A DNA stretch of 64,000 bases from an uncultured Thermodesulfobacteriota bacterium (lineage in GTDB: Bacteria > Desulfobacterota > Desulfomonilia > UBA1062), in assembly GCA_942491525.1 (NCBI GenBank), contig CALOBW010000030.1, positions 157,156 through 221,155 on the forward strand. The letters run 5' to 3'. Below the pieces are notes generated by a model that had not been told where the DNA came from, did not search any database, and saw only the letters and a list, made by a program, of their open reading frames with translations. Position numbers and translations under genes: made by a program. Below are positions 862 to 49,541 of this stretch, piece by piece. Each line of letters starts with the position of its first letter. Within the stretch, counting starts at the first letter, position 1.

Positions 862-1704
862 CTAGTGCCACATGCGCTGCAGAGCTTCGCGCATCATGAC
901 CAGGGCCGGCTCATTGAGGCGGTCCCGGCGGCAGACGAATGAGAAGGCCAGCGGCAGGGTAGTCCCGTCCCAGACCAGCATGCCCTCCACGACCTCGAAG
1001 CGCGGCAGCAGACTCAGCCCCTTGCCCGCCAGCACCATGCGCTTGAGGGTGGCCTCTTGGTCGGCCGTGACCCGGATATCGGGGGCGAGCTCGCCAAAGG
1101 CATCCTTGAGGGTTCTGGTGAAGGGGCAGTCGGGCGGGGTCATGACCCAGGGCAGCCTGGCGATCTCTTCGATCGGTCGGCCCATGACCCTCTCCGCCCA
1201 GGCCTCAGGCGCCACGATCACCAGCTCAAAGCACGCCAGCTCGAGGGCCTCAATCTCAGCATAGTCATTCTTGCCGAAGATGAAGCCGCCGTCATACTCG
1301 CCGGCCAGCAGATCCTTGAGGATGCGCGGCGTGGAGCTGGTGGTGATGCTCAGATTGAGGCAGGGCACCGCCTCGATCATCTCGTCCAGCCGGAAGACCT
1401 CCGGATGGGTGTTGACGGCCAGCTTCAGGCCGACCGAACTCCGGCCGCTGATGGCCGCCGCCGCGCACTCAAAGCCGGCCAGGGCGGCCATGATCTCGCG
1501 GGCCTTGTTAAGCAGCTGCGCCCCGGCCTCACTCAGCTGCATGCCGCGCGGGGTGCGCCTGAAGAGCTGCAAGCCATACTCCTCCTCAAGCATCTTGATG
1601 TGGGCGCTGACCGCCGGCTGGCTCAGATTGAGCTGCTCGGCGGCCCGGGTCAGGTTGCCGCTCTCGGCTACCCGGATAAATGTGCGCAACTGATAAATTT
1701 CCAT
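862..1704 (-). CDS. LysR-family transcriptional regulator
   Basis: N-terminal HTH (FIRVAESGNLTRAAEQLNLSQPAVSAHIKMLEEEYGLQLFRRTPRG) followed by a substrate-binding domain; GGAG RBS. Confidence 0.95.
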   Translation of the reverse strand: MEIYQLRTFIRVAESGNLTRAAEQLNLSQPAVSAHIKMLEEEYGLQLFRRTPRGMQLSEAGAQLLNKAREIMAALAGFECAAAAISGRSSVGLKLAVNTHPEVFRLDEMIEAVPCLNLSITTSSTPRILKDLLAGEYDGGFIFGKNDYAEIEALELACFELVIVAPEAWAERVMGRPIEEIARLPWVMTPPDCPFTRTLKDAFGELAPDIRVTADQEATLKRMVLAGKGLSLLPRFEVVEGMLVWDGTTLPLAFSFVCRRDRLNEPALVMMREALQRMWH

Positions 1705-1716
1705 AGACCTCTCCGC

Positions 1717-1733
1717 TATCAGAAATCCTGATA
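1717..1733. promoter_or_regulatory. LysR-type operator (T-N11-A palindrome)
   Basis: TATCAG-AAATC-CTGATA immediately upstream of the lysR start, in the divergent gap. Confidence 0.65.
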
Positions 1734-1754
1734 CCTGTAATCAGATAGTAAAAT

Positions 1755-1783
1755 TAGACATCTGCGGCAAGGGGAAATATGCT
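1755..1783 (+). promoter_or_regulatory. sigma70-like promoter for the leaderless small ORF
   Basis: TAGACA-17 nt-TATGCT; ATG lies 6 nt downstream of the -10 box. Confidence 0.55.
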
Positions 1784-1789
1784 GCCGGC

Positions 1790-1942
1790 ATGAAGATCAG
1801 AGACGCCGCCCGCTACATCCTGAGCCCCGAGGACTCCCAGGAGCAGCTAAACCATCTGACAAGCGCTTTCGAGCCCGCCGGCTGCCTGAAGTGCATCTTC
1901 TGGATCATCACGACCACGGCCGTGGCCGTGCTGCTATTTTAG
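1790..1942 (+). CDS. Small 50-aa putative membrane protein (not in ORF track)
   Basis: MKIRDAARYILSPEDSQEQLNHLTSAFEPAGCLKCIFWIITTTAVAVLLF*. GC3-rich codons, hydrophobic C-terminus, and it is the only ORF divergent from lysR. Confidence 0.55.
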   Translation: MKIRDAARYILSPEDSQEQLNHLTSAFEPAGCLKCIFWIITTTAVAVLLF

Positions 1943-2464
1943 TTCAAGTTCAACTTGATGCAGGGCCCGGTTCAGATCGCGCTGGATCTTTTGCATACGC
2001 GGGCCCTGCTGGCCAAACTTTTCCATGACAGGATCCCACTCGCGGCTTTTGAACTTGCTCTGACTGAGCTGTGTGATACGGGTCTGCAGCCAGACATACT
2101 CCTGGGACTGGTAGCGCAACTCCTCCTCATCCGCATCCCACCACTGGAAGTTTAACCAGGCGCTTAAGGATGGCCCGCGCGGTATGCGGCCGTTCTGAGC
2201 CAGATACTCATAGCGCCGGTCGGCCCGCTCGATGAGCGCCACCTGCAGATCGCGCTGCTCCTTGAGCAAGGGCTCGGAGTCGGGCAGTTCAGATACCAGC
2301 AATTCATAGATCTGATCCTGATAGCTGATCTTGGCCAGACTGGCCCTCTGGCGCAGGGGGTCGCTGACACGCTGCTGGATCTTGTCCGGGATGACAAGCT
2401 CGGGTTCGGCCGGCTCGGAGCAGGCCAGTAACAGGAGGGGCAGGAGTAGGATTAGTTTGCGCAT
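1934..2464 (-). CDS. Hypothetical lipoprotein
   Basis: MRK + hydrophobic stretch + LLLAC lipobox. TAAAAT lies 7 nt upstream of the ATG with no SD (leaderless-like). Confidence 0.75.
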   Translation of the reverse strand: MRKLILLLPLLLLACSEPAEPELVIPDKIQQRVSDPLRQRASLAKISYQDQIYELLVSELPDSEPLLKEQRDLQVALIERADRRYEYLAQNGRIPRGPSLSAWLNFQWWDADEEELRYQSQEYVWLQTRITQLSQSKFKSREWDPVMEKFGQQGPRMQKIQRDLNRALHQVELELK

Positions 2465-2503
2465 GGTGGGTATTTTACAGGATTTATCTGTTTGGGGATA
2501 GAT

Positions 2504-2552
2504 GTCATTCCCGCGCAGGCGGGAATCCAGCGGCTTAAAGACACTGGATTCC
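2504..2552. repeat. Truncated REP/dRS3-like palindromic element
   Basis: GTCATTCCCGCGCAGGCGGGAATCCAG (ATTCCC-N8-GGGAAT core) ... CTGGATTCC; the right arm stops abruptly. Confidence 0.6.
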
Positions 2553-2609
2553 GAGTTGGGGCTGAACTGACGGGGTGTTTAACGCTATTTAACGTAAATA
2601 ATACTAACA

Positions 2610-4019
2610 TTAACCATACAACCGCTTAAACTCATCTATTGCAAATGAATCGGTCATACCTGCGAGGTGGTCACAAATTCCTCTTAATAATGCAATTTGA
2701 AAATTCTTATCTTGCCTATAAGACACTGAATCTATGGAATTTCTCATATCACCTAACTGTTTTGATTCAACATTAAGATTACTTACCATTTCAGGATCAT
2801 ACATTTTGAATACATATGTAATTGTTGAATCATGCAACTGCCTAGGATTCGTTAAATACGCTTTGAACAATCTACGAATTACAAATTTTCCTTTCCCGTC
2901 CATTCGCTGCGCGTCAAAAGAATTCAGAATACGATTACGCAAGAATTCTTGAAAATTCTTCTCATTCTTTTCAAATTCAGTTTCATAGCTAATCAGGCTA
3001 TTAATGTCACAATAATTAATGCCTATATATTTCTGAGCAAAATCTTCTTTAGAAGAAATCGAATTGTCCTTTATAAATTTATTCAGATTAGATGACGAAT
3101 TCAAAATCAAGTTCTTATTCAAGAAGTGGACTATAAACTTAGACATTTGGGGGAGGAAGAATACCAACTCTCTCTTTGACATTAATTCTGTAAATAGTTT
3201 CTCATCTTCATAATCAAAATGATTACTAAATCGTTCGTCAATCTCGTTTAATAATTCGTCCCGGTCAATTATTTTCATATACAAAGCATCTTCAATATCA
3301 TGATGCCGCTGAGCAATCTCATCTGCAATCTTAACTACATCAGCCTCAAATGACCACGCTGGACTAACGCTGTCTGCCAACAGAGAACCTTTGTATTTAT
3401 CATAAAATCCAAGATCACGAAGTCCGACGCAATCCTGGGGATTCAATTTACTGTAGCATTGACCATCACCCTCGCCCTTGTTCTTACAATCGCCCCATGA
3501 ATCTCTGGTATGATTAACAACACCCCACAGCGTATAATTGGTTAAATTCAGCCCAAACGAATTATACCGTTGTTCTAATTCTGACAAAACTCGAATGCCC
3601 TGCCAATTATGCTTAAAACCCTTATCTTTATTCTTCATCTCTAGCTGGAATTCAGCCAACTTATCGCAGCCACACATTATTGAATTCAACGTTTGCTCGC
3701 CAACATGACCAAAAGGCGTATGTCCAACATCATGCGCCAATGCAATGGCTTCAGTTAAAATTTCATCTAGAGAAAGATTTCTTGCTGTAGTTCGTGCAAT
3801 CTGACTTACCTCTAGAGTATGAGTTAATCGTGTTCTAACATTGTCTGAAGATGAAACAAAAACCTGAGTTTTTCCGCTTAGCCGTCTAAATTCTTTTGAA
3901 TACAAAACTCTATCACGATCTCTTTCAAACTCAGTGCGATATGGTTTCGCTGCAACCATCTCTCTGGCATCACGTTTAGCAAATTTATCTGGAGCTCCTA
4001 AGTGATATTGAACATGCAT
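2610..4019 (-). CDS. dgt: Deoxyguanosinetriphosphate triphosphohydrolase (dGTPase), HD family, AT-rich
   Basis: FERDRDRVLYSKEFRRLSGKTQVF, RTRLTHTLEV, ALAHDVGHTPFGHVGE, ADEIAQRHHDIEDA and DHLAGMTDSFA. Confidence 0.92.
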   Translation of the reverse strand: MHVQYHLGAPDKFAKRDAREMVAAKPYRTEFERDRDRVLYSKEFRRLSGKTQVFVSSSDNVRTRLTHTLEVSQIARTTARNLSLDEILTEAIALAHDVGHTPFGHVGEQTLNSIMCGCDKLAEFQLEMKNKDKGFKHNWQGIRVLSELEQRYNSFGLNLTNYTLWGVVNHTRDSWGDCKNKGEGDGQCYSKLNPQDCVGLRDLGFYDKYKGSLLADSVSPAWSFEADVVKIADEIAQRHHDIEDALYMKIIDRDELLNEIDERFSNHFDYEDEKLFTELMSKRELVFFLPQMSKFIVHFLNKNLILNSSSNLNKFIKDNSISSKEDFAQKYIGINYCDINSLISYETEFEKNEKNFQEFLRNRILNSFDAQRMDGKGKFVIRRLFKAYLTNPRQLHDSTITYVFKMYDPEMVSNLNVESKQLGDMRNSIDSVSYRQDKNFQIALLRGICDHLAGMTDSFAIDEFKRLYG

Positions 4020-4032
4020 TTCAAATCCCTCC

Positions 4033-4302
4033 TTATTCAGAAATATTTACAACAACATTTGAAACTCCAACAAAGTTAATGTTTCCATCCGGCGGACAAC
4101 AAACCCGACACCCCCGATACCCAGCCGCCCGCGCCTCGGCCGGACTAGCAAAAACAAGCCGATTCTCAGGATAGATCTTCTGCGCCCAGCGGCAGGATGG
4201 ATAGTGATAGACATCAGATTTGCGGGAGCCCCAGAACTCAGCCGCCAGGGCGCCGCTTACCAGCAGCAGGATCAACAGGAACGTCAGACAGGCCTTGCGC
4301 AT
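4033..4302 (-). CDS. Secreted Ada metal-binding (Zn) domain protein
   Basis: Signal peptide, then FWGSRKSDVYHYPSC...EARAAGYRGCRVC; ends in an AT-rich 18-aa tail. Confidence 0.8.
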   Translation of the reverse strand: MRKACLTFLLILLLVSGALAAEFWGSRKSDVYHYPSCRWAQKIYPENRLVFASPAEARAAGYRGCRVCCPPDGNINFVGVSNVVVNISE

Positions 4303-4337
4303 ACAACTCCCCCTTAAGGACGAGTCTCAATATGCAC

Positions 4338-4384
4338 AACCTAGCATAGATTTCACCGGCGTGTAAGTATCCGAAAGGATACCT
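4338..4384 (-). promoter_or_regulatory. Promoter of the Ada-domain/dgt unit with upstream palindrome GTATCC-GAAA-GGATAC
   Basis: Minus-strand TTACAC-17-TAGGTT with TG extension; the palindrome at 4367-4382 abuts the -35 box. Confidence 0.5.
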
Positions 4385-4470
4385 GCACCCCGGCCGCGGA
4401 CCGGCAAAAGCACAGCACGATTGACCAAACCTCACGCTTGAAGTATTTCTGCTAATCAGGAGTCAAGCAA

Positions 4471-5199
4471 ATGCATGAGAGCGAACCACAGAAGATTGCC
4501 CGCGAACTTGAGCTGGCGATCTTCAAGGGCGAATTAAAACCCCACAGCCGTTTCCCCTCCGAGCGCACTCTGGCTGAGCGTTACCGCGTCAGCCGGCCGG
4601 TGGTGCGTGAGGCCATCACGCACCTGACCCAGCTGGGGCTGGTCAAATCGGTCCCCAAGAGCGGCACATTTGTAACCGATTACCAGTCGGCCGCCTCACT
4701 GGAACTGCTGGTCCACATCATGCAGACCACCGAAGAGATTGATTCCACCATTATCCTGTCACTCTTGCGCACACGCCGCATGATCGCGCCCTTTGTGGCT
4801 TTTGAGGTTGCCAAGGTCATCAGCGCCGAGGATCTGCGCGCCATGCAGCAGGCCGGCCAGAAGCTGATTGCCAGCCTCAATAATCCGGAGGCCGTCTCCG
4901 AGGCTGACTTCAATTTTCACTTTAGCCTTTTTGAGATAATGAACGATCTGATCACCAAGTTGATCTACAATGCGGTCAAACCAATTTACCGCCACTACAC
5001 CGATTATTACTATCAGCTGGACGGCACCAAGGCCGCCACCACCACCTTCGTCAACGAGCTATTGGACGCCCTGGCCAAACATGATGCACCAACGGCCCGG
5101 CAGGTTATGGATGATGCCGTCCTCTACGCCGAAAACCGTTTAATCACCAGCCTCAAGCTTACCGAGCAAGAGCGTTCCATCAACCTCAGGACCGGCTGA
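4471..5199 (+). CDS. GntR-family (FadR subfamily) regulator
   Basis: PSERTLAERYRVSRPVVREA wHTH plus FCD-like C-terminal domain. Confidence 0.93.
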   Translation: MHESEPQKIARELELAIFKGELKPHSRFPSERTLAERYRVSRPVVREAITHLTQLGLVKSVPKSGTFVTDYQSAASLELLVHIMQTTEEIDSTIILSLLRTRRMIAPFVAFEVAKVISAEDLRAMQQAGQKLIASLNNPEAVSEADFNFHFSLFEIMNDLITKLIYNAVKPIYRHYTDYYYQLDGTKAATTTFVNELLDALAKHDAPTARQVMDDAVLYAENRLITSLKLTEQERSINLRTG

Positions 5200-5266
5200 C
5201 CTCCGCCTGTCTCCAAAGTACAACTCATTCCTTAAAACAGCCGCCGCAGATTCCTCTGGTCCGGAA

Positions 5267-5326
5267 TCTGGCCTTACCAGATTGCACTTGACAACCCCGT
5301 GCGAGCCGGCGTACTGGTAAGACCAG
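5267..5326 (+). promoter_or_regulatory. Methyltransferase-operon promoter with two FadR-type operators
   Basis: TCTGGCCTTACCAGA (5267-5281) and CTGGTAAGACCAG (5314-5326) flank TTGACA (5288-5293); both resemble the PdhR/LldR-type TGGT-N3-ACCA box. Confidence 0.7.
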
Positions 5327-5366
5327 ATACATTGATTATTCTATATTTGACTTATTGGAGGAAGAT

Positions 5367-6536
5367 ATGAACCCAACCGAACGAATTCTCAGAACCATGG
5401 AGGGTAAACCGGTTGACCGGATACCCACATTCTGCGCCGGCCTTGAGGAGCGCACCGTTTTCGAGGTTCTGGGGCAGCCCCTGATCCAGACCAAGACCAC
5501 CCTCGCCAACCCCGTCACCCAGGCGCTCCTGAACAAATGGGGGCCCCAGATGACGAAACCCTTCGTGCAGCCGGCCATCACCAGCGGCATGGACAAGCGC
5601 ATCAAGGCCGCCGCCCAGCTGGGATTTGACGCGACCTGGGCCCTCTACGATGAAACCTTTATCGTCCTGGACGCCAAGAACATGGCCCGCTACACCGGCG
5701 CCCTCTTTGAGATGCAGGATGACGGCTACGGCAACATGACCTACATGTACAAGGGCCCGGGCATCACCAGCCGCGCAGAGTTTGAAGCCTGGCCCTACTG
5801 GCCCGACGCCGACGCGGTCGCCCAGCGCGCCTACAAATTTTTCAAGAAAATGCTGGCGCGTTATGGCGATCAAATCTGCTTTTGCGGCCAGGCCTCAGCC
5901 TACGGCATCCAGGAGTCGCTGCTCTGGACCATCGGCTTCGAAAAGGTGCCCTTCTGGATCCGCAAGGAGAAAGATCTGGTGGAACGCTTCATCGCCATGG
6001 CCGAGGAGCTCTGCCTGAAAACATCGCTGGCCATGCTGGATGCGGGCGTCGAGATCATCCTGCAGTCGGATGATTTCGCATTCAAGACCGGCCCCATGAT
6101 GAACCCCAAAATGATCGATCAGCTCTTCGGACCCTCCTACCGGCGCATCATCAAGGCCGTCCATGATCGCGGCGGCAAATATATCCTGCACTCCTGCGGT
6201 GACAACACGGTGCTCTTCGACACCCTGATCGACTGGGGCGTCGACGGCCTGCATGCCTATGAGAACACCTCCACGGTCGACATCTTCAAGCAAAAGGAGG
6301 TGCACGGCGATCGCGTCACCATGATCGGCGGCGTCGGCATCGACTACCTGCTGACGGAGCGCTCCCGCGATGAAGAGGTTGTGGAGATGGTGCAGCAGCT
6401 GATCAAAAAGATGGGCCCGGGCGGCCGTTACCTGCTGGGACCAATCCACGGCATGAGCAACATGCCGGCCGCCAAGCTGAAAGTGATGATCGAGGCCTGC
6501 CACAAATATGGCAGCTACCCTATCAATTTAAACTAA
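5367..6536 (+). CDS. UroD-fold (MtaA/CmuA-like) corrinoid methyltransferase 1
   Basis: GGAGG RBS places the start at 5367. IILQSDDFAFKTGPMM, YILHSCGD, MIGGVG and YLLGPIH are typical of the URO-D family. Confidence 0.85.
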   Translation: MNPTERILRTMEGKPVDRIPTFCAGLEERTVFEVLGQPLIQTKTTLANPVTQALLNKWGPQMTKPFVQPAITSGMDKRIKAAAQLGFDATWALYDETFIVLDAKNMARYTGALFEMQDDGYGNMTYMYKGPGITSRAEFEAWPYWPDADAVAQRAYKFFKKMLARYGDQICFCGQASAYGIQESLLWTIGFEKVPFWIRKEKDLVERFIAMAEELCLKTSLAMLDAGVEIILQSDDFAFKTGPMMNPKMIDQLFGPSYRRIIKAVHDRGGKYILHSCGDNTVLFDTLIDWGVDGLHAYENTSTVDIFKQKEVHGDRVTMIGGVGIDYLLTERSRDEEVVEMVQQLIKKMGPGGRYLLGPIHGMSNMPAAKLKVMIEACHKYGSYPINLN

Positions 6537-6547
6537 CGGAGGATAGC

Positions 6548-7192
6548 ATGATCAATTCAATTGACGCCGTCATCAAGGCTATTGATGAACTGGACTTTGA
6601 CAATATCGAGCAGGTTGTGCAGCTATGCCTGGATGAGGGCCTCTCGCCCCTGAGCATTATTCAGGACGGAGTCTGCAAAGGTCTGGATGTGGTCGGCGAA
6701 AAATTTAACAGCGGCGAATATTTCCTGGCCGACCTGGTCATGGCGGGTGAGATCGTGAATGAGATCATGCCCACCCTCAAAGCCCGCATCAACCCGGCCG
6801 AAGTTGTCAATAAGGGCAAGGTGGTCATGGCCACGGTCCAGGGCGACATCCATGAGATCGGCAAAAACATTGTCTGCATGCTGTTGGATGCCAACGGCTT
6901 CGACGTGATCGACCTGGGCGTCGACGTGCCCACCGCGCGCATTGTCAGCGCCGTCAAAGAGAGCGGCGCACGCCTGGTGGGACTATCCTGCCTGCTGAGC
7001 ACCATGGTGGACAGCATTGGCGATGTGGTCAGAACCCTGCAGAGCGAAGGCCTCAGGGAGCGCGTCAGCGTCTTCATCGGCGGCGCCTGCACCTCGGAGC
7101 AGCTTAAAGATGAGATGGGTGCCGATGTCTATACCGCCACGGCGGTGGATGCCGTCAAGATGTTCGCCCAGCTGAGCGAGAGCATGGCATGA
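6548..7192 (+). CDS. Methyltransferase cognate corrinoid (B12-binding) protein
   Basis: N-terminal cap (GEYFLADLVMAG), DxHxxG motif (VQGDIHEIGKNIV), VGLSCLL and IGG. Confidence 0.95.
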   Translation: MINSIDAVIKAIDELDFDNIEQVVQLCLDEGLSPLSIIQDGVCKGLDVVGEKFNSGEYFLADLVMAGEIVNEIMPTLKARINPAEVVNKGKVVMATVQGDIHEIGKNIVCMLLDANGFDVIDLGVDVPTARIVSAVKESGARLVGLSCLLSTMVDSIGDVVRTLQSEGLRERVSVFIGGACTSEQLKDEMGADVYTATAVDAVKMFAQLSESMA

Positions 7193-8118
7193 ACCTGATT
7201 GCGCCGTTAGGAACGGCCATGGGCATCAACCTGATCGGGGCTGCGCCGCAGGACGCCATCTTCAAGCCGACAGTGCAGGCCGAAGCCGTCGCCGCCTTCA
7301 GCCAGCGCTTCCCGGCCATCGAGCTGGTCTATAGCCTGATGGACACCTCCATCGAGGCGCGCGCCCTGGGCTGCGCCTATGAATTCAAGGGCCGGGTGCC
7401 GGCCATCAGCAATCATCCGGGCGCGTTCGGCCCTCTGCCGGACCCCTGGCAGAGCGAGCCCATGCGCGTCAACCTTGAGGCCGTGACGCTGATCCGCGCC
7501 CAGACAGACAAACCGCTGGTCTCCTACGTGGTGGGGCCGGTGACGCTGGCGGCCCACATCTATGGCATCACCCCCCTGATCATGCTCTCGCGGCGCAACA
7601 AGGCCGAGTTTGAAAATGTGCTGCAGCAGGCCTGCGCCGTCATCAAGCCCTATGCCCGGGCCCTCTGCGCGGCGGGTGCCGACTATATCGTCATTCTGGA
7701 GCCCCAGGCCCTGATCTTTGCGCCGCAGGCCTACAGCAGCCAGATCGCCGGGACCATCGCCGAGCTGACAGCCCAGATCCCCCAGGCGGTGCTGCATGTC
7801 TGCGGCGACACAACCCCCCACGCCCAGGCGCTGGCGGCGACGGCCAACATTAAAGCGCTCAGCCTGGACTGGCAGGTTGATTTCAGCAGCATAACGCCCC
7901 CGGCAGGGGTGTCCCTGATGGGCAACATCGATCCGGTGGCGCTGCTGCAGAACGGCTCACCCCAGGAGATCCACAACGCCGTGACCAGCCTCCTGGAGAG
8001 CATGCAGGGCCGCGACTTCATCCTGGCCACCGGCTGCGACATGGTGCCGGACACCCCACCCGAGAACCTGGACAGCTTTATCGACGCCGCCCTGGAGTGG
8101 CGCACCCGGCGCGGATGA
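7189..8118 (+). CDS. UroD-fold methyltransferase 2 (MtaA/MtbA-like Zn-thiol motif)
   Basis: VLHVCGD ... LMGNIDP ... ILATGCD gives H-X-C-X77-C; ATGA overlap with the upstream gene. Confidence 0.85.
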   Translation: MNLIAPLGTAMGINLIGAAPQDAIFKPTVQAEAVAAFSQRFPAIELVYSLMDTSIEARALGCAYEFKGRVPAISNHPGAFGPLPDPWQSEPMRVNLEAVTLIRAQTDKPLVSYVVGPVTLAAHIYGITPLIMLSRRNKAEFENVLQQACAVIKPYARALCAAGADYIVILEPQALIFAPQAYSSQIAGTIAELTAQIPQAVLHVCGDTTPHAQALAATANIKALSLDWQVDFSSITPPAGVSLMGNIDPVALLQNGSPQEIHNAVTSLLESMQGRDFILATGCDMVPDTPPENLDSFIDAALEWRTRRG

Positions 8119-9482
8119 AAACTTGCCGGCTCAGCCTCTCTGACGGCAGCAGCGCCAATTTTGCCGCCGGCACACGGCTGGCCGATGCCTTGCTGGAGAT
8201 GGGCATCGGGCTCGAGACGGCCTGCGGTGGCCGCGGCAGCTGCGGCAAATGCCGCGTTGAGGTCAGGGCTGAGACCACCACAAGCGTACCCAGACTGGCC
8301 TGCCAGACATATCTGGATGGTGACCTGACGGTAGCGCTGCACGCCCGGCGCCAGCAGGCGCAAGATCCCCCCCCTGCCGCCAGCCGCGCGGCCATCGATA
8401 TCGGCACCACCACCATCAAACTGAGCTTTGACGACGGGACCGAAAAAACATATCTCAATCCCCAGCGCCGCTACGGACATGATGTCATCTCGCGCATCCG
8501 GGCGGCCCGCGCGCCCGAAGCAGCCCGCCACATGCAGAGCCTGATCAACCAGACCCTCGCCAGCGCCATGCGCGGCGCTGAGATTGAGCAGATCGCCATC
8601 AGCGCCAACACCACCATGCTCTACCTGCTGCTGGGGCTCGACACCGCCCCCCTGGGCCGGGCACCGTTTAAGCCTCCGCTGACAGATTTCGGCAGCCTGA
8701 ATATCGACAGGACGACAATCTTGCCAGTCGTCGACGCATTTATCGGCGCCGATCTGGTGGGCGGGCTAGCCCTGCTGCACGAGAGCGGCCCCGGCACGCT
8801 GTTTGTCGATCTGGGCACCAATGGCGAAATGTTTGTGATCGATAAGGCGGGCCGCATCTTGGCCACCTCCTGCGCCATGGGCCCCGCCCTGGAGGGCATG
8901 AACATCAGCTGCGGCATGACAGCCACCCCGGGGGCCATCAGCCATATCAGCCATGATTGGCAATATGAAACCATCGGCGGCGGCGCGCCGGCCGGCCTCA
9001 GCGGCACCGGCCTGATTGATCTGCTGGCCAATCTGCTGCGGCACGATATCATTGATACGACCGGGCGCATCCGCCCAGACGGCCAGCTGCCTGACCAGGT
9101 CAGACGGATGGACCATGGCCTGCGCCTCTTTGACCAGATCAGTCTGAGCCAGGCCGATATCCGCAATTTCCAGTTGGCCAAGGCGGCCAGCCTGTGCGCC
9201 GCCGAACTGCTCGGACTGGATCAGATCGATAATGTCTACATTGCGGGAGCCTTCGGACAAAATCTCAACCTTGAAAATTTCAGACGGCTCAGATTCTTAC
9301 CAGCCCTGAGCGGCGCTAACTGGCACTATGCCGGCAACACCAGTCTTGCTGCCGCCCGATCCACCCTGAGCGAGCCTGGTTTCTATGGCCATGCCTGCGA
9401 ACTGCGCGACCGCATCGATACCGTCAACCTCTCGGCCTGCCCGTCGTTCCAGCAACACTTCATGCAGGCCTTGGCTTTTTAA
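8115..9482 (+). CDS. ASKHA-domain reductive activator of corrinoid proteins (RACo/RamA-like, DUF4445)
   Basis: N-terminal 2Fe-2S motif (CGGRGSCGKC...RLACQ), AIDIGTTT, VDLGTNGEM, GPALEG and YIAGAFG; ATG at 8115 overlaps the upstream TGA. Confidence 0.92.
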   Translation: MKTCRLSLSDGSSANFAAGTRLADALLEMGIGLETACGGRGSCGKCRVEVRAETTTSVPRLACQTYLDGDLTVALHARRQQAQDPPPAASRAAIDIGTTTIKLSFDDGTEKTYLNPQRRYGHDVISRIRAARAPEAARHMQSLINQTLASAMRGAEIEQIAISANTTMLYLLLGLDTAPLGRAPFKPPLTDFGSLNIDRTTILPVVDAFIGADLVGGLALLHESGPGTLFVDLGTNGEMFVIDKAGRILATSCAMGPALEGMNISCGMTATPGAISHISHDWQYETIGGGAPAGLSGTGLIDLLANLLRHDIIDTTGRIRPDGQLPDQVRRMDHGLRLFDQISLSQADIRNFQLAKAASLCAAELLGLDQIDNVYIAGAFGQNLNLENFRRLRFLPALSGANWHYAGNTSLAAARSTLSEPGFYGHACELRDRIDTVNLSACPSFQQHFMQALAF

Positions 9483-9491
9483 GGGGGAGTC

Positions 9492-10142
9492 ATGCCGATC
9501 TTTACCAACATTCCATTTAACCCGCAGACTGAGCAGCTCCAGACCCAATTGCGCATTCAACCGGGATCACGCCAGGAGGTTGATTTTAGGATGCTGCTGA
9601 GCGAAGCGCTGGCCGCAGCCAGACCCAAAGCGGTCTATCAGGCAGAGACCGTTGTCCGCGCAGACGGGCCCACCCTCGCTATCGGCGGCATCAAATTCAG
9701 CAGCGCCCTGCTGCATGAACAGCTGAGCCCGACGGTCTATCCGTTTGCCGCCACCTGCGGCCGTGAACTGGCCGAATTTTCCAAAACCCTGACCAGGCCG
9801 CTGCATAAGTTCTGGCTCGAATATATTCAGATCAGCGCCCTGAACAGCGCGACCCAATATCTGCAGGCGCAGCTTGCCGTGCCGGATCTGGCCTGCCTTA
9901 CGCCGGGATCACTGCCCCAGTGGAATCTTGAGCAGCTGCCGCTGATTTTTGAGCTGCTGGGCGACGCTCCGGCCGCGATTGGCATCCAGCTGATGCCCAA
10001 CTGTCTGATGAAACCGCTCAAATCTGTCAGCGGGATCTATTTCCGCTCAGCAGACAATTTCAGCAACTGCCGCAACTGTTCGCGTCTGGACTGCCCCACA
10101 CGTCAGGCACCCTACCAGGCGGCTGGATTTCCAGAAATTTGA
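9492..10142 (+). CDS. Stand-alone B12-dependent methionine synthase activation-like domain protein
   Basis: YPFAATCG, PGSLPQWNLEQ, MKPLKSVSGIYF and a terminal CRNCSRLDCPTR motif. Confidence 0.8.
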   Translation: MPIFTNIPFNPQTEQLQTQLRIQPGSRQEVDFRMLLSEALAAARPKAVYQAETVVRADGPTLAIGGIKFSSALLHEQLSPTVYPFAATCGRELAEFSKTLTRPLHKFWLEYIQISALNSATQYLQAQLAVPDLACLTPGSLPQWNLEQLPLIFELLGDAPAAIGIQLMPNCLMKPLKSVSGIYFRSADNFSNCRNCSRLDCPTRQAPYQAAGFPEI

Positions 10143-10169
10143 GAGGCTCCCGGCTACAGCGGAATCAGG

Positions 10170-10565
10170 CTACCCCCAGCGGCGCTGCCGCCTTTTGCTC
10201 TCCAGCCAGCTATCAGCCTCGTCACGGCTGCGGAAGATCATATGTTCCCAGAGCATCTCGCCCAGGTGGGCCTGCCACATGCGGCCGAGGCCGTACTGCA
10301 GGTCGCTGGGCGCAATCACGGCCACCATCACGCCGGCCGCATGCTTGGACATCTGCTGATACTGTTCGGCCAAGAGCTGAATATTAAGGTCCGGAACCCG
10401 CATCTCAGCCACATCCGTATAGTCGGCCACGATGGTCGAAAAATTCATCAGCTGCTCCGGATGATTGAGTCGGCACTGGAATGAGTCATAGATCTCGGCG
10501 CTGGTCAGCACCCCGTAGTAGCGGATGGAAAGTCCGCCATCCGCATACACCACCTCGCACGGCAT
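10170..10565 (-). CDS. Hypothetical protein (STAS/SpoIIAA-like small alpha/beta fold)
   Basis: AVIAPSDLQYGLGRMWQ...IFRSRDEADSWL; upstream AGGAGG. Confidence 0.65.
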   Translation of the reverse strand: MPCEVVYADGGLSIRYYGVLTSAEIYDSFQCRLNHPEQLMNFSTIVADYTDVAEMRVPDLNIQLLAEQYQQMSKHAAGVMVAVIAPSDLQYGLGRMWQAHLGEMLWEHMIFRSRDEADSWLESKRRQRRWG

Positions 10566-10690
10566 AGGTATACCTCCTGATTATCAACTGCAGATCAATT
10601 CAGCGTGAGCAAAAATCAAAGGAGCGGCTTTCAGCATATCAGATCATAGACATCATCAGAAGTGCCAAAACAAAAATTTTCAAAATTTTG

Positions 10691-11035
10691 TCAAACCGCC
10701 GGCTCTTTCAGCTGATAGCGGTTGGGATCATTGAAGAAGGAGACATCGGCATAGCCGGCGTAGATCTTGCCGGAATGTCTGACGCCCAGCGGAATGTGGT
10801 ACTGGTCACCCTTGCGGTAGGTCTGCGACCGGCCGTCAATCACCAGATCGATACGCCCCTGCAACACAATACCGATCTGGGCGCAATGGGCATGGGCCGG
10901 CAGAGTTATATCCTTGGCAAACTGCATGAAGATGATCTGATGGTTCTCCGACTGGGAAACATAGGCCGTGATCCCGTCCAGCGGGATGTCGGCCTGGGGC
11001 AACTTGGTGATGGATTCAGGGAAGCAGCTGTTCAT
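10691..11035 (-). CDS. Cupin domain protein
   Basis: HAHCAQIGIVLQG...GDQYHIPLGVRHS two-motif cupin. Confidence 0.9.
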   Translation of the reverse strand: MNSCFPESITKLPQADIPLDGITAYVSQSENHQIIFMQFAKDITLPAHAHCAQIGIVLQGRIDLVIDGRSQTYRKGDQYHIPLGVRHSGKIYAGYADVSFFNDPNRYQLKEPAV

Positions 11036-11859
11036 AGTTCCCCATTAAAATCATGAATCCGGCGCGATGTCACGCCCACGATGTAGATCATCCAGAATAT
11101 CAACGTGATGTGCAGCACATCATTGGCCGAGAACCAGATGCCGCGCGCCCAGAGCTTCTCGGTGCAGCCGGCCAGAAAATAGCCGTAGTAGCAGACAATC
11201 ACCAGCCCCAGCCCCACCCAGGTGCCGATCTGGGCCGCATCCATGGAGAGCTTGTGGCGCGCATAACGCACCGCGTTCAGAACCACGAAGGCAATCACGC
11301 TGGGAGCCAGAAAGAGCAGCATCAGCTCAAAAGATATCATCAAGCGCTGGGGCAGATAGCAGCCCAGCAGCAGAACAAAAGTGTAGGTCAGCATGTTGGC
11401 CGCCGCATAGCCCAGCAGGCCGCGGCGCAGGCGGCCGCCGCTGCAGCAGTAGGCCTGACCGGCCATCATGGCGTTCAGGCTGCCGACCGACAGCAGCAGA
11501 TAGGCAATTTCCCAGTAGCTGGTCCAGACACAGTACTCACGGCCGGCGCACTTGAGCTCATAGCTGAAGATCTGATAGCTGGTGCCGGCCGAGAGCGCTC
11601 CCAGACCCCAGAGAATCAACGAGATGCCCCACCAGCGACGCGATTTCTGGCCCGCGGCAATCCGCAGAAAATGAATGCCGCAAATGATGGTTATGATGCC
11701 GAGAAAGTAGACGAAGAAGGTTGAGCTGGGCTCCATCAGCAGCCAGCTGCGGCCGAAGGCCTCGACCTCGACCCAGGGCATGCTGGTCAGCCACTCGTCA
11801 GGGGTGATCAACGGACGGTAGAGCAGAACTTCAAGATCAAACATTTCAGTCAATTGCAT
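11032..11859 (-). CDS. Uncharacterised multi-pass membrane protein (DUF6962-like)
   Basis: GGAGGAG RBS before ATG at 11859; about 7 hydrophobic segments; MEPSST and ANDVLH motifs. Confidence 0.65.
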   Translation of the reverse strand: MQLTEMFDLEVLLYRPLITPDEWLTSMPWVEVEAFGRSWLLMEPSSTFFVYFLGIITIICGIHFLRIAAGQKSRRWWGISLILWGLGALSAGTSYQIFSYELKCAGREYCVWTSYWEIAYLLLSVGSLNAMMAGQAYCCSGGRLRRGLLGYAAANMLTYTFVLLLGCYLPQRLMISFELMLLFLAPSVIAFVVLNAVRYARHKLSMDAAQIGTWVGLGLVIVCYYGYFLAGCTEKLWARGIWFSANDVLHITLIFWMIYIVGVTSRRIHDFNGEL

Positions 11860-11917
11860 AACTCCTCCTGTTGACGCAATTTTCACACGATTATCCGAAG
11901 GCGTCAACAGAGGTGAT

Positions 11918-13060
11918 TCAATCGGCGACGCGGTTGCGGCCGGCGCTCTTGGCTCGGTAGAGGGCGGCGTCGGCCGCTTCAATCAGAGCCTGGGGGTCGG
12001 CCCCTGCATCGGCCTGCAGGCTGGCCGCCCCGATACTGACCGTCACATGCCCCCAGGCCGACAACTGATGCCTGATCTGCAGGCGGCGCACGGCGCTGCA
12101 AAGATTCTCGGCCATGGTCAGCGCACCCCTCAGCTCAGTTTCAGGCAGGATCACGCAGAACTCCTCGCCACCGTAGCGCGCCAGCAGATCCGCCGGCCGT
12201 CTGATCTCCTGCTGCAGGGCCCCGGCCACCTTTCTGAGGCAGTCGTCACCGGCCAGGTGGCCATAGGCATCGTTATACTTCTTAAAGAGGTCCACATCGA
12301 TCATCAGCAGGCTCAGCACAACGCCGGAACGCCTGGCGCGCTGCCACTCCTGGCCGAGGTGTTCGTCAAAGCTGCGGCGGTTGGCCAGTGATGTCAGACC
12401 ATCCAGGGCCGAGAGCCTGGCCAGTTCCCGGTTGGCCCTCTCCAGGTCCCGGTTCTGGGTCTCAATGACCTGTTCGCGCATGAAGCGGTTCAGGCGCTGG
12501 ACCCGCATGACATGCGAGATCAGCAGCGCCACAATACTCAGGATGCAGATATCGGCCACCGCCAGGATCGCATCGCCCCCCCACCCGCCACTCAGCAGAA
12601 CCACGCTGACCATCAGGAGTGTCGCCAGCAGCATGAGTATGACCAGCTCTACCTTGCTGAGGCTGATCAGAACCGAGAGCAGCAGAATTGTAAAATAGAT
12701 GTATATCAGATCATCCGCCACCAGGGAGAGGACCACCCCGTAGGCGATGGTAATCATCAGTATCAGCCACTGCACATGACGACTGCCGGGATGACCCTGG
12801 GCCAGGAGCACGATCAGGGCGGGCGTGCCGAAGAGCACCGCCAGCACCATTTTAAGGCTGCCGACAACCGCGACCAGGGTCTGATTGACCTCGGCCGCCC
12901 CGTAGACCATGTAGGCGATCAGCAGATAGAGCAGCGACTGCAGCATCAGCAGCAGCGAGATCAGCCGGGCACGGTTGAGATTGTTGCAAACCGACTGTTT
13001 GACGAACAGCACCTGATCAGCCGGGTCCAGTCGGGGCGTCCTCAGGCTCAGATCATCCAT
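11918..13060 (-). CDS. Membrane-anchored diguanylate cyclase (GGDEF)
   Basis: Multi-TM N-terminus, LDGLTSLANRR, IDVDLFKKYNDAYGH and RPADLLARYGGEEF (intact active site with an RxxD I-site). Confidence 0.93.
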   Translation of the reverse strand: MDDLSLRTPRLDPADQVLFVKQSVCNNLNRARLISLLLMLQSLLYLLIAYMVYGAAEVNQTLVAVVGSLKMVLAVLFGTPALIVLLAQGHPGSRHVQWLILMITIAYGVVLSLVADDLIYIYFTILLLSVLISLSKVELVILMLLATLLMVSVVLLSGGWGGDAILAVADICILSIVALLISHVMRVQRLNRFMREQVIETQNRDLERANRELARLSALDGLTSLANRRSFDEHLGQEWQRARRSGVVLSLLMIDVDLFKKYNDAYGHLAGDDCLRKVAGALQQEIRRPADLLARYGGEEFCVILPETELRGALTMAENLCSAVRRLQIRHQLSAWGHVTVSIGAASLQADAGADPQALIEAADAALYRAKSAGRNRVAD

Positions 13061-13069
13061 AACCAGCGA

Positions 13070-13852
13070 CTATATCAAACCCTTGCGTTTCAGGGCGTGC
13101 ACGATCAGAAAGGTGTTCCACTCCGGGTGCGTGCGGCCCCAGCTGCCGTCGCGATTCTGATGCTCCGTCAGATAGACGGCGGCCTGCTGCAGCTGTTTTT
13201 CGGCCGAGGAACCGCTGATATGCCCCAGAACATTAAAGGTCTGATAAAAATTGAGCTCAGGCCAGCGGCCGTCATCCTGCTGAATCGCGGCCAGGCCGTG
13301 CACCGCCTCCTTAACCTCGGGCCCGCTGACGAAATCGGGATGGACCACAAAGCAGCGCAGAATGTTGCTGAAATTGGCCGGCGGAATCCAGGCCGCCACG
13401 CCCTCGGCAGCCAGCCCATTATAGGCCGCCATGACCCTTGTATCTCCGCCCAGGCCGAAGATGGTGGCCAGAAATAGACTCGCCGTCAGATAGAGAGTCC
13501 GATTGTCGGACTTGACAAAGGGCAGGCCCGCCAGTTCATCGGCCCCGACCTTGCCGGCCCTATGCTCGCTCTCCAGATGGTGGCTGATCAGCCAGTTTAG
13601 CCCGCGCTCGCTCTGCTCATCCAGTTCACGCACACAGAGGTGCAGGCCGAAAAGACGGCTGATGGTCCAGATCGAGGAGTTCTCCCAGGAGCCGTCGGCC
13701 CACTGGTTTGAATAGAGATGGCGGGCGGCAATGTCATGATCGCGCTGCCAGTGCTGATCATGCTCATGCAGCCAGTAGTGTCGGGCATAGATGCCGACCG
13801 GCGTCTGGGAATCTTTGAATATCTGCAGCGGGTCGTGTTTTAACTCCAACAT
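13070..13852 (-). CDS. Prenyltransferase/squalene-cyclase QW-repeat-like protein
   Basis: Three QW-like repeats (NQWADGSW, QQDDGRW, HQNRDGSW); no DxDD motif seen. Confidence 0.6.
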   Translation of the reverse strand: MLELKHDPLQIFKDSQTPVGIYARHYWLHEHDQHWQRDHDIAARHLYSNQWADGSWENSSIWTISRLFGLHLCVRELDEQSERGLNWLISHHLESEHRAGKVGADELAGLPFVKSDNRTLYLTASLFLATIFGLGGDTRVMAAYNGLAAEGVAAWIPPANFSNILRCFVVHPDFVSGPEVKEAVHGLAAIQQDDGRWPELNFYQTFNVLGHISGSSAEKQLQQAAVYLTEHQNRDGSWGRTHPEWNTFLIVHALKRKGLI

Positions 13853-13923
13853 GCGCTACCTCCTACAGATTTTAATAGAGCCCGGCCCGCTGAAGGCAAG
13901 CCCGATCTGTTGAAGGCAGAGAA

Positions 13924-13948
13924 GTCGGGGGCAGATGCCCCCGGCTTT
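13924..13948 (-). terminator. Intrinsic terminator after the DUF3892 gene
   Basis: GTCGGGGGCA-GA-TGCCCCCGGC hairpin just past the stop codon. Confidence 0.6.
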
Positions 13949-13950
13949 GT

Positions 13951-14229
13951 CTAGCCCAGATTTAGCAAATTCTCGGGATGCTCGTCATCAAGGATGGTCT
14001 TGAGATACTTCTCACCGGATTCGGTTACCGCCACAACCACGTCGGTCTTGTTGCCATTGGCGTCAACATAGAATCCCCACTCTCCAAGCTCAATACCGGC
14101 GATTGCCTGGCACGGAGAGATCTCCCACTCGGAACCGTCGGAATTCTTGCCACCGAGCAGTCTGATACATTCATGTGCACTTTCACGATCACTCTTCTGA
14201 ATATAAAGAACCTGATGTTTTGATGCCAT
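13951..14229 (-). CDS. DUF3892 domain protein
   Basis: IQKSDR...HECIRLLGG...W...AIAGIELG...FYV...YLKT..D....NLLNL pattern. Confidence 0.8.
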   Translation of the reverse strand: MASKHQVLYIQKSDRESAHECIRLLGGKNSDGSEWEISPCQAIAGIELGEWGFYVDANGNKTDVVVAVTESGEKYLKTILDDEHPENLLNLG

Positions 14230-14302
14230 AATCCCTTCTCCCTCAAATTTTTTCTAAGATGGTAAGTACTCGTAAATACAACAACAACCATTCTTAAATG
14301 CT

Positions 14303-14349
14303 AATCTAGCACAACTTGATCAGGCTCCGTAAGTATCCCAAAGGATACC
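14303..14349 (-). promoter_or_regulatory. DUF3892 promoter with upstream palindrome GTATCC-CAAA-GGATAC
   Basis: Minus-strand TTACGG-18-TAGATT with TG extension; same palindrome and geometry as at 4338-4384. Confidence 0.5.
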
Positions 14350-14357
14350 TTTTTGAT

Positions 14358-14397
14358 GATCACGAGGTATACCTTTGGGATACCTCGTGATCTTTTT
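14358..14397 (+). terminator. Perfect 13-bp hairpin plus U-tract in a divergent intergenic region
   Basis: GATCACGAGGTAT-ACCTTTGGG-ATACCTCGTGATC-TTTTT. Confidence 0.6.
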
Positions 14398-14519: not shown

Positions 14520-15080
14520 ATGATGTCCAAGATTATGGCCAGAATTAAATATACAATCGGGGCCGGCTTTTTTAAAATTACAGGCTGGCGCTGCGACCGA
14601 CTGCCCAAGGAGCTGGGCAACCGTTTCGTGCTGATCGGCTTTCCGCACACATCCAATATTGATGCGCCCATCGGCGTGGCATTCTCATTCATCAACCAGA
14701 TGCAGGCCAGCCCCATGCTCAAGAAGGAGTGGATGTTCTGGCCCATGAGCGTCATCTTCAAGGCCATGCACGTGATCCCCATCGACCGCGGAGCCAAGAC
14801 CGATGTGGTGGGTCAACTGGTTGGCGAGTTCAAAGCGCGCGACAACTTCATCCCCTTCATCTTTCCGGAGGGCACGCGCAAAAACGTCAACCAGATCAAG
14901 ACCGGCTTCTGGCACATCGCCGATCAGGCCGGCGTGCCCATCGCCATGCTCTTCAAAGATTTTGAAGAGCGCCGCATCCGCTACATGGGCCACATCCATA
15001 CCAGCGGCGACAAACGGGCCGACCTGCTGAAGATCAGAGAGATCTTCCAAACCGTCGACCATGAGGTGCCGGTAAGCTAG
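14520..15080 (+). CDS. PlsC-like phospholipid/glycerol acyltransferase
   Basis: GFPHTSNID (HX4D), VIPIDR, FPEGTR and GFWHIA. Confidence 0.9.
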   Translation: MMSKIMARIKYTIGAGFFKITGWRCDRLPKELGNRFVLIGFPHTSNIDAPIGVAFSFINQMQASPMLKKEWMFWPMSVIFKAMHVIPIDRGAKTDVVGQLVGEFKARDNFIPFIFPEGTRKNVNQIKTGFWHIADQAGVPIAMLFKDFEERRIRYMGHIHTSGDKRADLLKIREIFQTVDHEVPVS

Positions 15081-33110: not shown

Positions 33111-33893
33111 ATGGAGAGCGTCAGAAAACACGGAGCCCCGCCCTATGCCGTGGCCCTGGTCCACGGCGGCCCCGGTGCGGCCGGCGAACTGGAGCTGCTG
33201 GCCGCACAGCTTGAAATCAGCTCGCTGGAGCCCATGCAGAGCGCCTGCTCCATCGAGGGTCAAATTCAGGAGCTGCACAGCCAGCTTAAGGGGCATACGC
33301 CGATTATTTTGCTGGGCTACTCCTGGGGCGCCTGGCTGAGCATGCTCTTTGCCGCCCGTTACCCGGACCTGGTTAGAAAGCTGATTTTAATCAGCTGCGC
33401 GCCGCTTGAGGACCGCTACGCCCACAAGATTCACCAGACCCGCATGCAGCGCCTCGACTCCGAGGAGCAGCACGAGGTCAAGGAGCTGCTGCACGACTTC
33501 AGGGCCCACAACAACCAGGCCGACTTCACCCGCCTGGGCACCCTGCTGCGCAGAGCCGACGCCTTCTGTCCCCTGCCCCACCACGACCAGATCGAATGCC
33601 GGATCGACATCTACCGCAAGATCTGGCCCGAAGCCGCCGACCTGCGCTGGAACGGCCAGCTGATCGAAACCCTCAAAAAAATCACCTGCCCCGTCGCCGC
33701 CATCCACGGGGCCTACGATCCCCACCCCTACATGGGCGTCAAGGAGCCGCTGGCCAGGATCAAACCGCAGGCCAAGTTCCACCTGCTCAACCAGTGCGGC
33801 CATAAGCCCTGGATTGAGAAACATGCCCCAACTTCTTTTAAGACAGCATCGCCCGCCTCATGCCCAAATCTATCATTGATAGATTTAAAATGA
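33111..33893 (+). CDS. Alpha/beta hydrolase with replaced C-terminus
   Basis: VHGGPG, GYSWG nucleophile, GAYD and CGH; the last ~20 aa are read from AT-rich foreign DNA. Confidence 0.8.
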   Translation: MESVRKHGAPPYAVALVHGGPGAAGELELLAAQLEISSLEPMQSACSIEGQIQELHSQLKGHTPIILLGYSWGAWLSMLFAARYPDLVRKLILISCAPLEDRYAHKIHQTRMQRLDSEEQHEVKELLHDFRAHNNQADFTRLGTLLRRADAFCPLPHHDQIECRIDIYRKIWPEAADLRWNGQLIETLKKITCPVAAIHGAYDPHPYMGVKEPLARIKPQAKFHLLNQCGHKPWIEKHAPTSFKTASPASCPNLSLIDLK

Positions 33894-34846
33894 TCGAGAT
33901 CGATATAGAGTATAGCAACTTTGCGGCCTTCGCGATTGACCATGGCCAATGCTTGAGTCAGACGGTCCTGAAAAAGGTTGCGATTAACTAACCCGGTCAG
34001 ACTATCAAAATGCGCCAGTTGCAGAATCTGTTTTTCTGCTTGAATACGAGCAGCTTCACTACGCGCCAATTTCACATAACCAAACCCTAGTCCCAGCAAT
34101 GCAACAAACCAGATTACTGAATGAGCAATGAAAATTGCACCATGCACTTCATTGTAATCTCTGTGGAAAAGTCTCACAGGCAAAGTTACACTAATTCCAC
34201 CACGCAGATCACCCTCGCTATATCCTTGAGATGCGTGACATTTCAGACAAGATTTATCCACCTTTAATGGCATCATCATCCTGAAATAATATTTACCGTC
34301 CTGTTTAATACGTTCACTATAGTCAAAGGCGCCCTGCTCAAGTATTAGCAATGCTTTTTTTTCCCAGTTATCCGCAATGTTTTCGGGATTAATCGGATTT
34401 AAGCTAGTTATATGCCCGCTGACTACATTGCGTTGCTGAGCAAGGTCATAAACCTGTCGCGTCATATATGCCGGATTAATCATTGTCAGTTCCAACTCCG
34501 GTGAAACCTGAATATCACGCAGAGAGACCATTTCTGGAGTCAAATAACTATTAGGTTGATTTTGAACAGTCACCGGAACATATACTCCGCCATGCAGGCT
34601 ATTCCAGAGACGGTAAAGTTTATCCCGTTCAATTGAAGTTCTGCCGATCTCCTCAATTATGTTGTTAATCTCACTTTCATGCTGAATATTGCTCAACGCC
34701 ATTGAGATTAACAGAAACACTGACCAACAGATTGCCATAACAAGTGTTATTTGTTTTATTTTCAGTCCTGCAACATTATGAGCCATACTGTTAATATAAA
34801 CTGCTCTATTATAAATAGAAGAGGCATCATTTGCTTGGCATTTCAA
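33728..34846 (-). pseudogene. DUF3365 (heme-c) sensor - GGDEF protein, 3'-truncated
   Basis: TM - LHGGVYV...MINPAYMTRQ...CLKCH - TM - HFDSLTGLVNR...IDLDHFKSINDRFGHEAGDAVLKEV, then antisense hydrolase sequence; the GGDEF motif is absent. Confidence 0.85.
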
Positions 34847-34900
34847 GAATCCATCCTTATAATGTAAACTTATAGAACTTAAAACTTAAGGAGATATCGG

Positions 34901-35305
34901 ATGCCTTTAATAAACTGGAGCGATGAGCTTAGTGTAGGTATTTCAGAAATTGATCAGCAGCATCAGAAACTAATCAAGATGATAAACGACCTGGCTGATG
35001 CCATGCGCCAAAGACAAGGGAAAGAGGCCGTCGATCCGATCCTGAAGGGCTTGCTGGACTACACTGTGACCCATTTCAAGAATGAAGAAAACTATTTCGC
35101 GAAATTTAACTATTCTGAGACTGATAGCCATAAAAAAGAACATGCTGTGTTTATAAGTAAAATTGCAGAATTTAAAAAAGATTTTGAGAATAACAAAATC
35201 GGACTGACAACCAACATCCTGAATTACCTAAGCGATTGGCTTAAGAATCATATTATGGGTACAGATAAAAAATATACCCAACTCTTTCATGATAACGGCT
35301 TATAA
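34901..35305 (+). CDS. Bacteriohemerythrin
   Basis: WSDELSVGISEIDQQH, HFKNEE, HKKEH and WLKNHIMGTD iron ligands. Confidence 0.95.
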   Translation: MPLINWSDELSVGISEIDQQHQKLIKMINDLADAMRQRQGKEAVDPILKGLLDYTVTHFKNEENYFAKFNYSETDSHKKEHAVFISKIAEFKKDFENNKIGLTTNILNYLSDWLKNHIMGTDKKYTQLFHDNGL

Positions 35306-35650: not shown

Positions 35651-38004
<2,354 letters not shown>

Positions 38005-49509: not shown

Positions 49510-49541
49510 GAATCACCATTATGGAAGTTTTCAACTACTAC

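Follow-up and report, generated by a model that had tools for sequence, protein, structure and literature searches.

The window, as we call the whole 64-kb stretch of DNA analysed here, contains two divergent gaps about 10 kb apart. The first (site 1) lies between a minus-strand gene at 4033-4302 and a plus-strand gene for a GntR/FCD regulator at 4471-5199. The minus-strand gene, the first behind the site-1 promoter, encodes an 89-aa protein with a signal peptide and an Ada_Zn_binding domain (hereafter Ada-Zn); we call it sunset-like, its match to 'sunset' being weak. An AT-rich HD/HD_assoc dGTPase gene (2610-4019, minus strand) sits directly behind it, and is therefore probably expressed from the same promoter. 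The dGTPase matched the PADLOC dGTPase model (1e-77) and also the TIGR01353 dGTP triphosphohydrolase model; against the NCBIfam anti-phage model it scored below the cut-off. The second gap (site 2) separates a minus-strand gene for a 92-aa DUF3892 protein (13951-14229), driven by the site-2 promoter, from a plus-strand acyltransferase gene (14520-15080). The initial annotation had named an Ada-domain gene with a dGTPase gene, and a DUF3892 gene, as the downstream genes, and Pfam searches found these domains as claimed. DUF3892 has been tied to antiviral systems in the literature, and DUF3892 operons are listed among those under CapH/CapP-like pairs (bioRxiv 10.1101/2022.04.27.489752).

The Ada-Zn and DUF3892 genes are compositionally atypical, with GC3 values of 0.56 and 0.55 (approximately 0.55 for both) versus 0.75-0.87 in their neighbours, and the dGTPase gene (GC3 0.32) forms a compositional island of its own. 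Among the Logan contigs of ERR9670067, an independently made assembly of the same strain, the dGTPase gene was found as a separate 1.6-kb contig (L210, 1616 nt, corresponding to approximately 2504-4119 of the window), and the neighbouring contig (L139) breaks at approximately 4285. These breaks lie near GC transitions, and could reflect either heterogeneity of the population for the dGTPase insertion or uneven coverage.

Both gaps hold the same sequence element, which we refer to as the box (consensus GTAAGTATCC-N-AAAGGATACCT). Copy 1 occupies 4363-4384 (plus strand GTAAGTATCCGAAAGGATACCT, minus strand AGGTATCCTTTCGGATACTTAC) and copy 2 occupies 14329-14350 (plus strand GTAAGTATCCCAAAGGATACCT, minus strand AGGTATCCTTTGGGATACTTAC). 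The two agree at 21 of 22 bases, and the minus strand of either copy follows AGGTATCCTTT(C/G)GGATACTTAC. Both lie where they had originally been reported, at two promoters approximately 10 kb apart, and both are intergenic between a minus- and a plus-strand gene, as that report also held. At the core of the box is a perfect 6+6 palindrome, GTATCC-N4-GGATAC (4367-4382 in copy 1 and 14333-14348 in copy 2), so that the GTATCC and GGATAC half-sites are one helical turn (10 bp) apart within a dyad of 16 bp. The two boxes are on the same strand, in direct orientation, 9,966 bp apart, and are oriented alike relative to their downstream genes. Besides these two, the window holds no further full box at up to 3 mismatches, and 100 dinucleotide-preserving shuffles gave no box match at all. 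The half-site words are not over-represented outside the boxes in the 64 kb. Further low-GC3 patches, at 33728-35653 and 49451-49693, carry a GGDEF/Tll0287-like gene, a hemerythrin gene and two small unannotated ORFs, none of them with a box.

Downstream of each box on the minus strand lies a good extended −10 element of the TGnTAnnnT type with the word TGCTAG(G/A)TT (TGCTAGRTT): TGCTAGGTT at 4346-4338, 16 nt downstream of copy 1, and TGCTAGATT at 14311-14303, 17 nt downstream of copy 2. A search of both strands of the window (128 kb) returned TGCTAGRTT at these two sites only. The spacing, first described as matching, does so to within 1 bp, but not exactly (16 versus 17 nt). As for the −35 region, the candidates are CTTACA at site 1 (4/6, 18-nt spacer) and CTTACG at site 2 (3/6, 19-nt spacer), and both overlap the non-palindromic 3' end of the box, whose CTTAC flank sits in the −35 position. 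The first reading had placed the box directly upstream of a −35 element; this hexamer is weak and overlaps the box end. Because there is no good −35 hexamer, neither box was assigned a canonical sigma-70 promoter in a consensus promoter scan. Taking the −10 hexamer as −12 to −7, the centre of the dyad falls at −43.5 at site 1 and −44.5 at site 2. The site-2 −10 belongs to a symmetric word, TGCTAATCTAGCA (14299-14311), with an extended −10 on both strands. It offers TAATCT on the plus and TAGATT on the minus strand, the plus-strand version being kept neither at site 1 nor in the related contig L010 (see below). A symmetric extended −10 is a textbook bidirectional arrangement, and could fire both ways.

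A degenerate third box (B2), overlooked in the first reading of the sequence, lies at 14358-14392, centred 35 bp upstream of copy 2. Its core, GGTATACC-TTTG-GGATACC at 14366-14384, can be read as a box in which the spacer is 5 nt long and one of the arms has a mismatch. A perfect extra stem of 8 bp flanks this core, T5 follows on the plus strand, and the whole is a strong hairpin. The box is known to us from only two full copies, plus a degenerate and an orthologous one, which counts against the operator reading proposed below. The three copies in the 64 kb are every one promoter-linked; REP/BIME-like repeats would be expected in tens to hundreds of extragenic copies per genome, wherever the promoters lie.

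A search among 5.8 billion proteins yielded one usable close homologue of the DUF3892 protein, and no close homologue of the Ada-Zn protein. The former is encoded on an 838-nt ENA metagenome contig (L010, from sample ERZ23487456), our single relative for the footprint; its protein is 93% identical at the amino-acid level and the gene with its upstream region is 82% identical at the DNA level. Against this background, a 26-nt block, AAGGTATCCTTTGGGATACTTACGGA, comprising the box and four further bases, is perfectly kept. The −10, TGCTAGATT, is also perfect, with its 17-nt spacing to the box preserved, and the ribosome-binding region is conserved too. The spacer, by contrast, has diverged, and so has most of the leader. 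This comparison with a single relative is a classical phylogenetic footprint of a promoter with an upstream predicted protein-binding site. The unpaired flanks of the box (A... and ...TTAC) are conserved, asymmetric and outside the stem, and would fit read-out of the DNA sequence with an overlapping −35 better than a bare hairpin. In L010, B2 reads GGTATACC-TAAA-GGATACC and lies 34 bp from the box (35 bp in the window). Its half-sites are unchanged, the odd base falls in the opposite arm, and the extra stem is another one, 4 bp long. L010 and the window appear to remain homologous on the upstream side of B2. The 3' context of the DUF3892 module differs between the two: when L010 496-837 is set against window 13070-13852, a convergent hydrolase-like gene is seen downstream of DUF3892 in L010 and is absent from the window.

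We asked how much of this resemblance could be due to chance. Exact repeats of 16-21 nt also occur by chance in the GC-rich coding DNA of the window, and therefore the length of the box alone is not decisive. The evidence comes instead from its AT-rich palindromic sequence, its intergenic position, its orientation, the rare −10 at a set spacing and the conservation in the relative. By our own estimate, the joint occurrence is expected approximately 5e-6 times per window, which is the product of 0.016 for a pair of 22-mers with at most 1 mismatch and 3e-4 for a 9-mer matching at 8/9 positions within 1 bp. Outside the box and the −10, we observed no similarity between the two promoters above that of shuffled sequences (spacer p=0.78; downstream/leader p=0.48; upstream p=0.66). 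A recent duplication of the promoter was rejected on these grounds, spacer and flanks aligning no better than shuffled sequence. Because the rest of the promoters shows no significant similarity, the box and the −10 are kept by function and not by recent duplication. Two promoters subject to one and the same regulatory constraint would be expected to have only such elements in common. Likewise, as for operators of a regulon in general, the same motif takes a consistent position at two promoters (of two examined) and leaves a footprint in one relative.

To learn how far the box extends beyond the window, we took a 19-base version of it, AGGTATCCTTTNGGATACTT, and scanned 185,579 GTDB species genomes and, separately, the JGI metagenomes. 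Each scan returned 9 loci, when a rough estimate gives approximately 4 chance matches for the genome scan, and most of the matches were hairpins or terminators in unrelated phyla. Two matches in Desulfospira, upstream of a PEP-CTERM protein gene, were discarded as coincidental: their distance from box to −10 is approximately 15 nt longer and they have no TGCTAG word. Scans of viral sequences with GGTATCC-N4-GGATACTT and with a composite pattern of box plus −10 gave matches at chance level. The DUF3892 module had no blastn match in phage and plasmid collections, no DUF3892 relative was found in viral contigs, and a search of the literature for the motif string found nothing. Since the public genome, metagenome and virus scans stayed at chance level, the box is thus lineage-specific. 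The lineage is poorly sampled.

Two viral contigs, L051 (IMGVR_UViG_3300008450_006674, 1520-8654) and L035 (IMGVR_UViG_3300044972_000531, 9402-12826), carry 14 and 9 copies of GTATCC-N4-GGATAC, respectively. They are related to one another, have a GC content of 0.45-0.46 and a WhiB-like gene, and probably belong to an actinophage. Their palindromes have variable spacers and mostly a G...T flank asymmetry, and are found both between and inside small early genes; they give the impression of a densely packed regulatory or protein-binding array belonging to that phage, with no relation to the window. We rejected a link to the box as a coincidence of half-sites, given the WhiB-like gene and the lack of any protein in common with the window.

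A regulator for the box was sought among all genes of the window through Pfam scans. There are only four DNA-binding regulators: a LysR (862-1704), the GntR (4471-5199), a C-terminal fragment of a TetR (45607-46053) and an HxlR (61448-61795), none with a visible link to the box. No candidate regulator gene adjoins either site, apart from the GntR next to site 1, which we ruled out as the box-binding protein: it has a different operator of its own, conserved in relatives whose loci have no box. This operator is a pair of (C)TGG-N6-CCA(G) sequences, CTGGCCTTACCAG and CTGGTAAGACCAG (5268-5282 and 5313-5327), placed between the GntR gene and a corrinoid methyl-transfer operon. The pair is kept in four orthologous loci (L211-L214) whose regulators are 55-63% identical, for example at 3370/3413 in L211 and 10784/10831 in L213, and none of the four contains a box-like palindrome. 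The same scans found no regulator of the HTH-plus-peptidase (CapH/CapP) type, none of the WYL (BrxR/CapW) type and, with a LexA box in mind, no SOS gene such as lexA or recA in the window. Because the regulators of the window show no link to the box, the factor binding it is presumably encoded elsewhere in the genome.

Taken together, and with moderate confidence on the strength of the sequence evidence, we propose that the box is the binding site of a dimeric transcription factor, probably of the helix-turn-helix type, centred near −43.5/−44.5 and abutting a poor −35. What we observed directly is the anatomy of the sequence, the fact that it is unique in the window and its retention in one relative; from there on we infer that a protein binds it, where transcription starts and in which direction control acts. 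In this model, one dimeric regulator would bind the 16-bp dyad and co-regulate at least two sigma-70-type promoters, each composed of an extended −10 and a poor −35, with the 3' flank of the box doubling as a weak −35. The DUF3892 promoter would have a weaker second site 34-35 bp further upstream. The two promoters would drive two compositionally atypical small genes, those for the secreted Ada-Zn/sunset-like protein and for the DUF3892 protein, and a foreign dGTPase gene inserted behind the Ada-Zn gene would now depend on the box-controlled promoter.

The site was initially thought to be that of a shared activator. A shared cis-regulatory site is what the data suggest, with box and −10 as the sole common elements and the footprint in L010; the activator part fits the geometry, and a repressor is only slightly less probable. 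We have a slight preference for activation of the class II type over repression, because the −35 is degenerate, because two promoters without homology keep the distance from box to −10 the same to within 1 bp, and because a protein sitting at −36 to −56 would poorly block an extended −10 promoter. Repression, by analogy with defence operons under CapH-like repressors, is a serious option. A strict class II or cooperative geometry could tolerate the 1-bp difference in spacing and the offset of 34-35 bp between the site-2 boxes, which corresponds to a non-integral number of turns, but neither is ideal for it. From the nature of the target genes, a regulon responsive to stress or infection is a reasonable guess. 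A broader scenario, to which we give a low probability, is that of a dispersed regulon controlled in trans: one host regulator would switch on or de-repress 'orphan' conflict genes, namely the sensor-like DUF3892 gene and the secreted Ada-Zn gene, perhaps in response to stress or infection, and an imported dGTPase of the anti-phage type would have gained conditional expression.

The box could act instead as a single-stranded nucleic acid, either as an RNA stem-loop (a terminator or insulator of divergent transcripts, a small RNA or a 5' stabiliser) or as a REP-like DNA hairpin repeat. We consider this unlikely, but it is the structure of the box that keeps it in play. All box instances fold far better than shuffled sequences (z between −4.0 and −6.2), and three out of five are embedded in palindromes that reach beyond the core with flanks of differing, non-homologous sequence, which looks like conservation of structure. 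Copy 1 is at the centre of an imperfect palindrome of 38 nt (4356-4393; CCGGcGTGTAaGTATCC GAAA GGATACcTGCACcCCGG; fold z −5.4/−5.6 on the two strands), in which 8 of the 11 flank positions beyond the core form Watson-Crick pairs and one a wobble; the extension is not common to copy 2. B2 (14358-14392) adds 8 out of 8 pairs, and B2 of L010 adds 4 out of 5. These extended palindromes are not needed by a simple operator model, and hint at selection for hairpin structure or at a mutational bias towards it. Selection may have shaped all three stems; quasi-palindromes also tend to be 'corrected' by template switching, which is an alternative source of extended stems. It is because a plain operator leaves them unexplained that we retain the structured element as a rival. 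A run of T5 follows both site-2 hairpins on the plus strand, one of which was called as a terminator, and the extended −10 within TGCTAATCTAGCA could launch a plus-strand RNA through them; a short RNA ending at these hairpins is conceivable. That the site-2 hairpins allow three competing pairings is a trivial consequence of having one palindrome there twice. At site 1, however, both the T-runs and the plus-strand −10 are absent, and neither is conserved in L010; the only intrinsic terminator called is on the plus strand of site 2, with none at site 1, and no plus-strand gene ends upstream of either box copy. Copy 1 is moreover upstream of both predicted start points of its gap. The conserved stem shows no covariation, and conservation extends to the loop and the unpaired flanks, for which a bare hairpin has no need. 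The lack of any excess of half-site words outside the boxes and the chance-level public scans also speak against this reading. The whole window had no match to Rfam families at gathering thresholds, and permissive E-value scans turned up nothing in either gap beyond spurious microRNA-hairpin matches (16-22 bits, against gathering thresholds of 60-73). The small conserved RNA hairpin offered as a second option by the initial annotation finds no support in view of the Rfam result, the place of copy 1 upstream of the predicted starts and the T-runs being confined to site 2 of this strain.

It is also conceivable, albeit rather improbable, that no separate factor exists, and that box and TGCTAGRTT together form a specialised promoter, read directly by RNA polymerase carrying a stress sigma factor or an alternative one, with the box as a −35 or UP-like element, or a portable cassette of hairpin and promoter that travels with small accessory genes, much as T4-type phages have promoter-early stem-loop cassettes. 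Both sites and L010 have nearly the same −10 word, with a C at −13, which is a feature of sigma-S-type promoters, and its distance to the box is fixed within 1 bp. Yet an element for a sigma factor would not be expected to be a perfect 6+6 palindrome whose half-sites are spaced by 10 bp, and given the TGnTAnnnT frame, we estimate the extra identity of the −10 at only p=0.05 or thereabouts. A cassette would agree with the atypical composition of both driven genes and with the different downstream gene that the DUF3892 module adjoins in L010, but the spacers are non-homologous, so a single cassette was not copied to both promoters, and the homology that appears to run on upstream of B2 argues against a sharply bounded mobile unit. 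Far less probable is that the boxes are direct recombination sites (att- or res-like) bracketing the 9.97-kb segment at 4385-14328, with its corrinoid methyl-transfer operon. Two like-oriented 22-bp sites at a distance of 9,966 bp would suit such a role, and the asymmetric central AA could give them polarity, in the way that serine-recombinase crossover sites derive polarity from an asymmetric centre. No integrase or recombinase gene is found in or beside the segment, however, its GC content is host-like, and relatives have their GntR-corrinoid loci without a box at the border. Recombination would also leave unexplained a −10 co-conserved at a fixed distance, and the box of L010 is kept within a DUF3892 promoter.

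Returning to the operator reading, a shared operator at two promoters is an ordinary and familiar kind of finding, but the motif is new. If the box is an operator, it would provide a new DNA motif, and with it a small regulon, from a sediment-type, Desulfobacterota-like lineage that is uncultured and poorly sampled, and would tie DUF3892 and the secreted Ada-Zn/sunset-like protein, both uncharacterised, to a common signal. It would also illustrate that inserting behind a regulated promoter is enough to subject a horizontally acquired dGTPase gene to host control. The value of the finding rests on the possible link to defence or stress, and the motif provides a concrete handle for finding the regulator and the inducing condition.

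Several known systems resemble the box in part. REP/BIME elements are short extragenic imperfect palindromes, some of them paired in inverted orientation, in which a GTA(A/G)-type head precedes the stem on its 5' side, and the box resembles them in these respects. It differs from them in having two (plus one) copies in 64 kb, in the conservation of the core only, in its fixed position relative to the −10 and in lacking related copies in public genome scans. The operators of FadR-subfamily GntR regulators (TGGT-Nx-ACCA; here at 5268 and 5314) are, like the box, palindromes in a divergent gap beside a GntR gene, but their sequence and spacing are different. Class II activator sites of the CRP/FNR type are centred near −41.5 at promoters with a poor −35. 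Like the box, they are palindromes with half-sites approximately one turn apart that abut or overlap a degenerate −35; the distance from box to −10 kept within 1 bp, and the second upstream site at one promoter, add to the likeness. They differ in their half-site (TGTGA or TTGAT versus GTATCC) and in their centre (−41.5 versus about −43.5/−44.5), and activation through the box is a prediction. Finally, the operators of the CapH/CapP and BrxR/CapW systems (bioRxiv 10.1101/2022.04.27.489752) are also palindromes in the promoters of defence-associated genes, and one of the targets of the box comes with a dGTPase matching anti-phage models. The regulators of those systems adjoin their own operon and are divergent from it, whereas the gaps of the box border a GntR and an acyltransferase gene. 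As the box serves two separate loci, control through it would be in trans, unlike CapH/CapP and BrxR/CapW; a trans-acting regulon, if true, would mean coordinate control of separate immune genes, as opposed to the cis-encoded regulators described so far.
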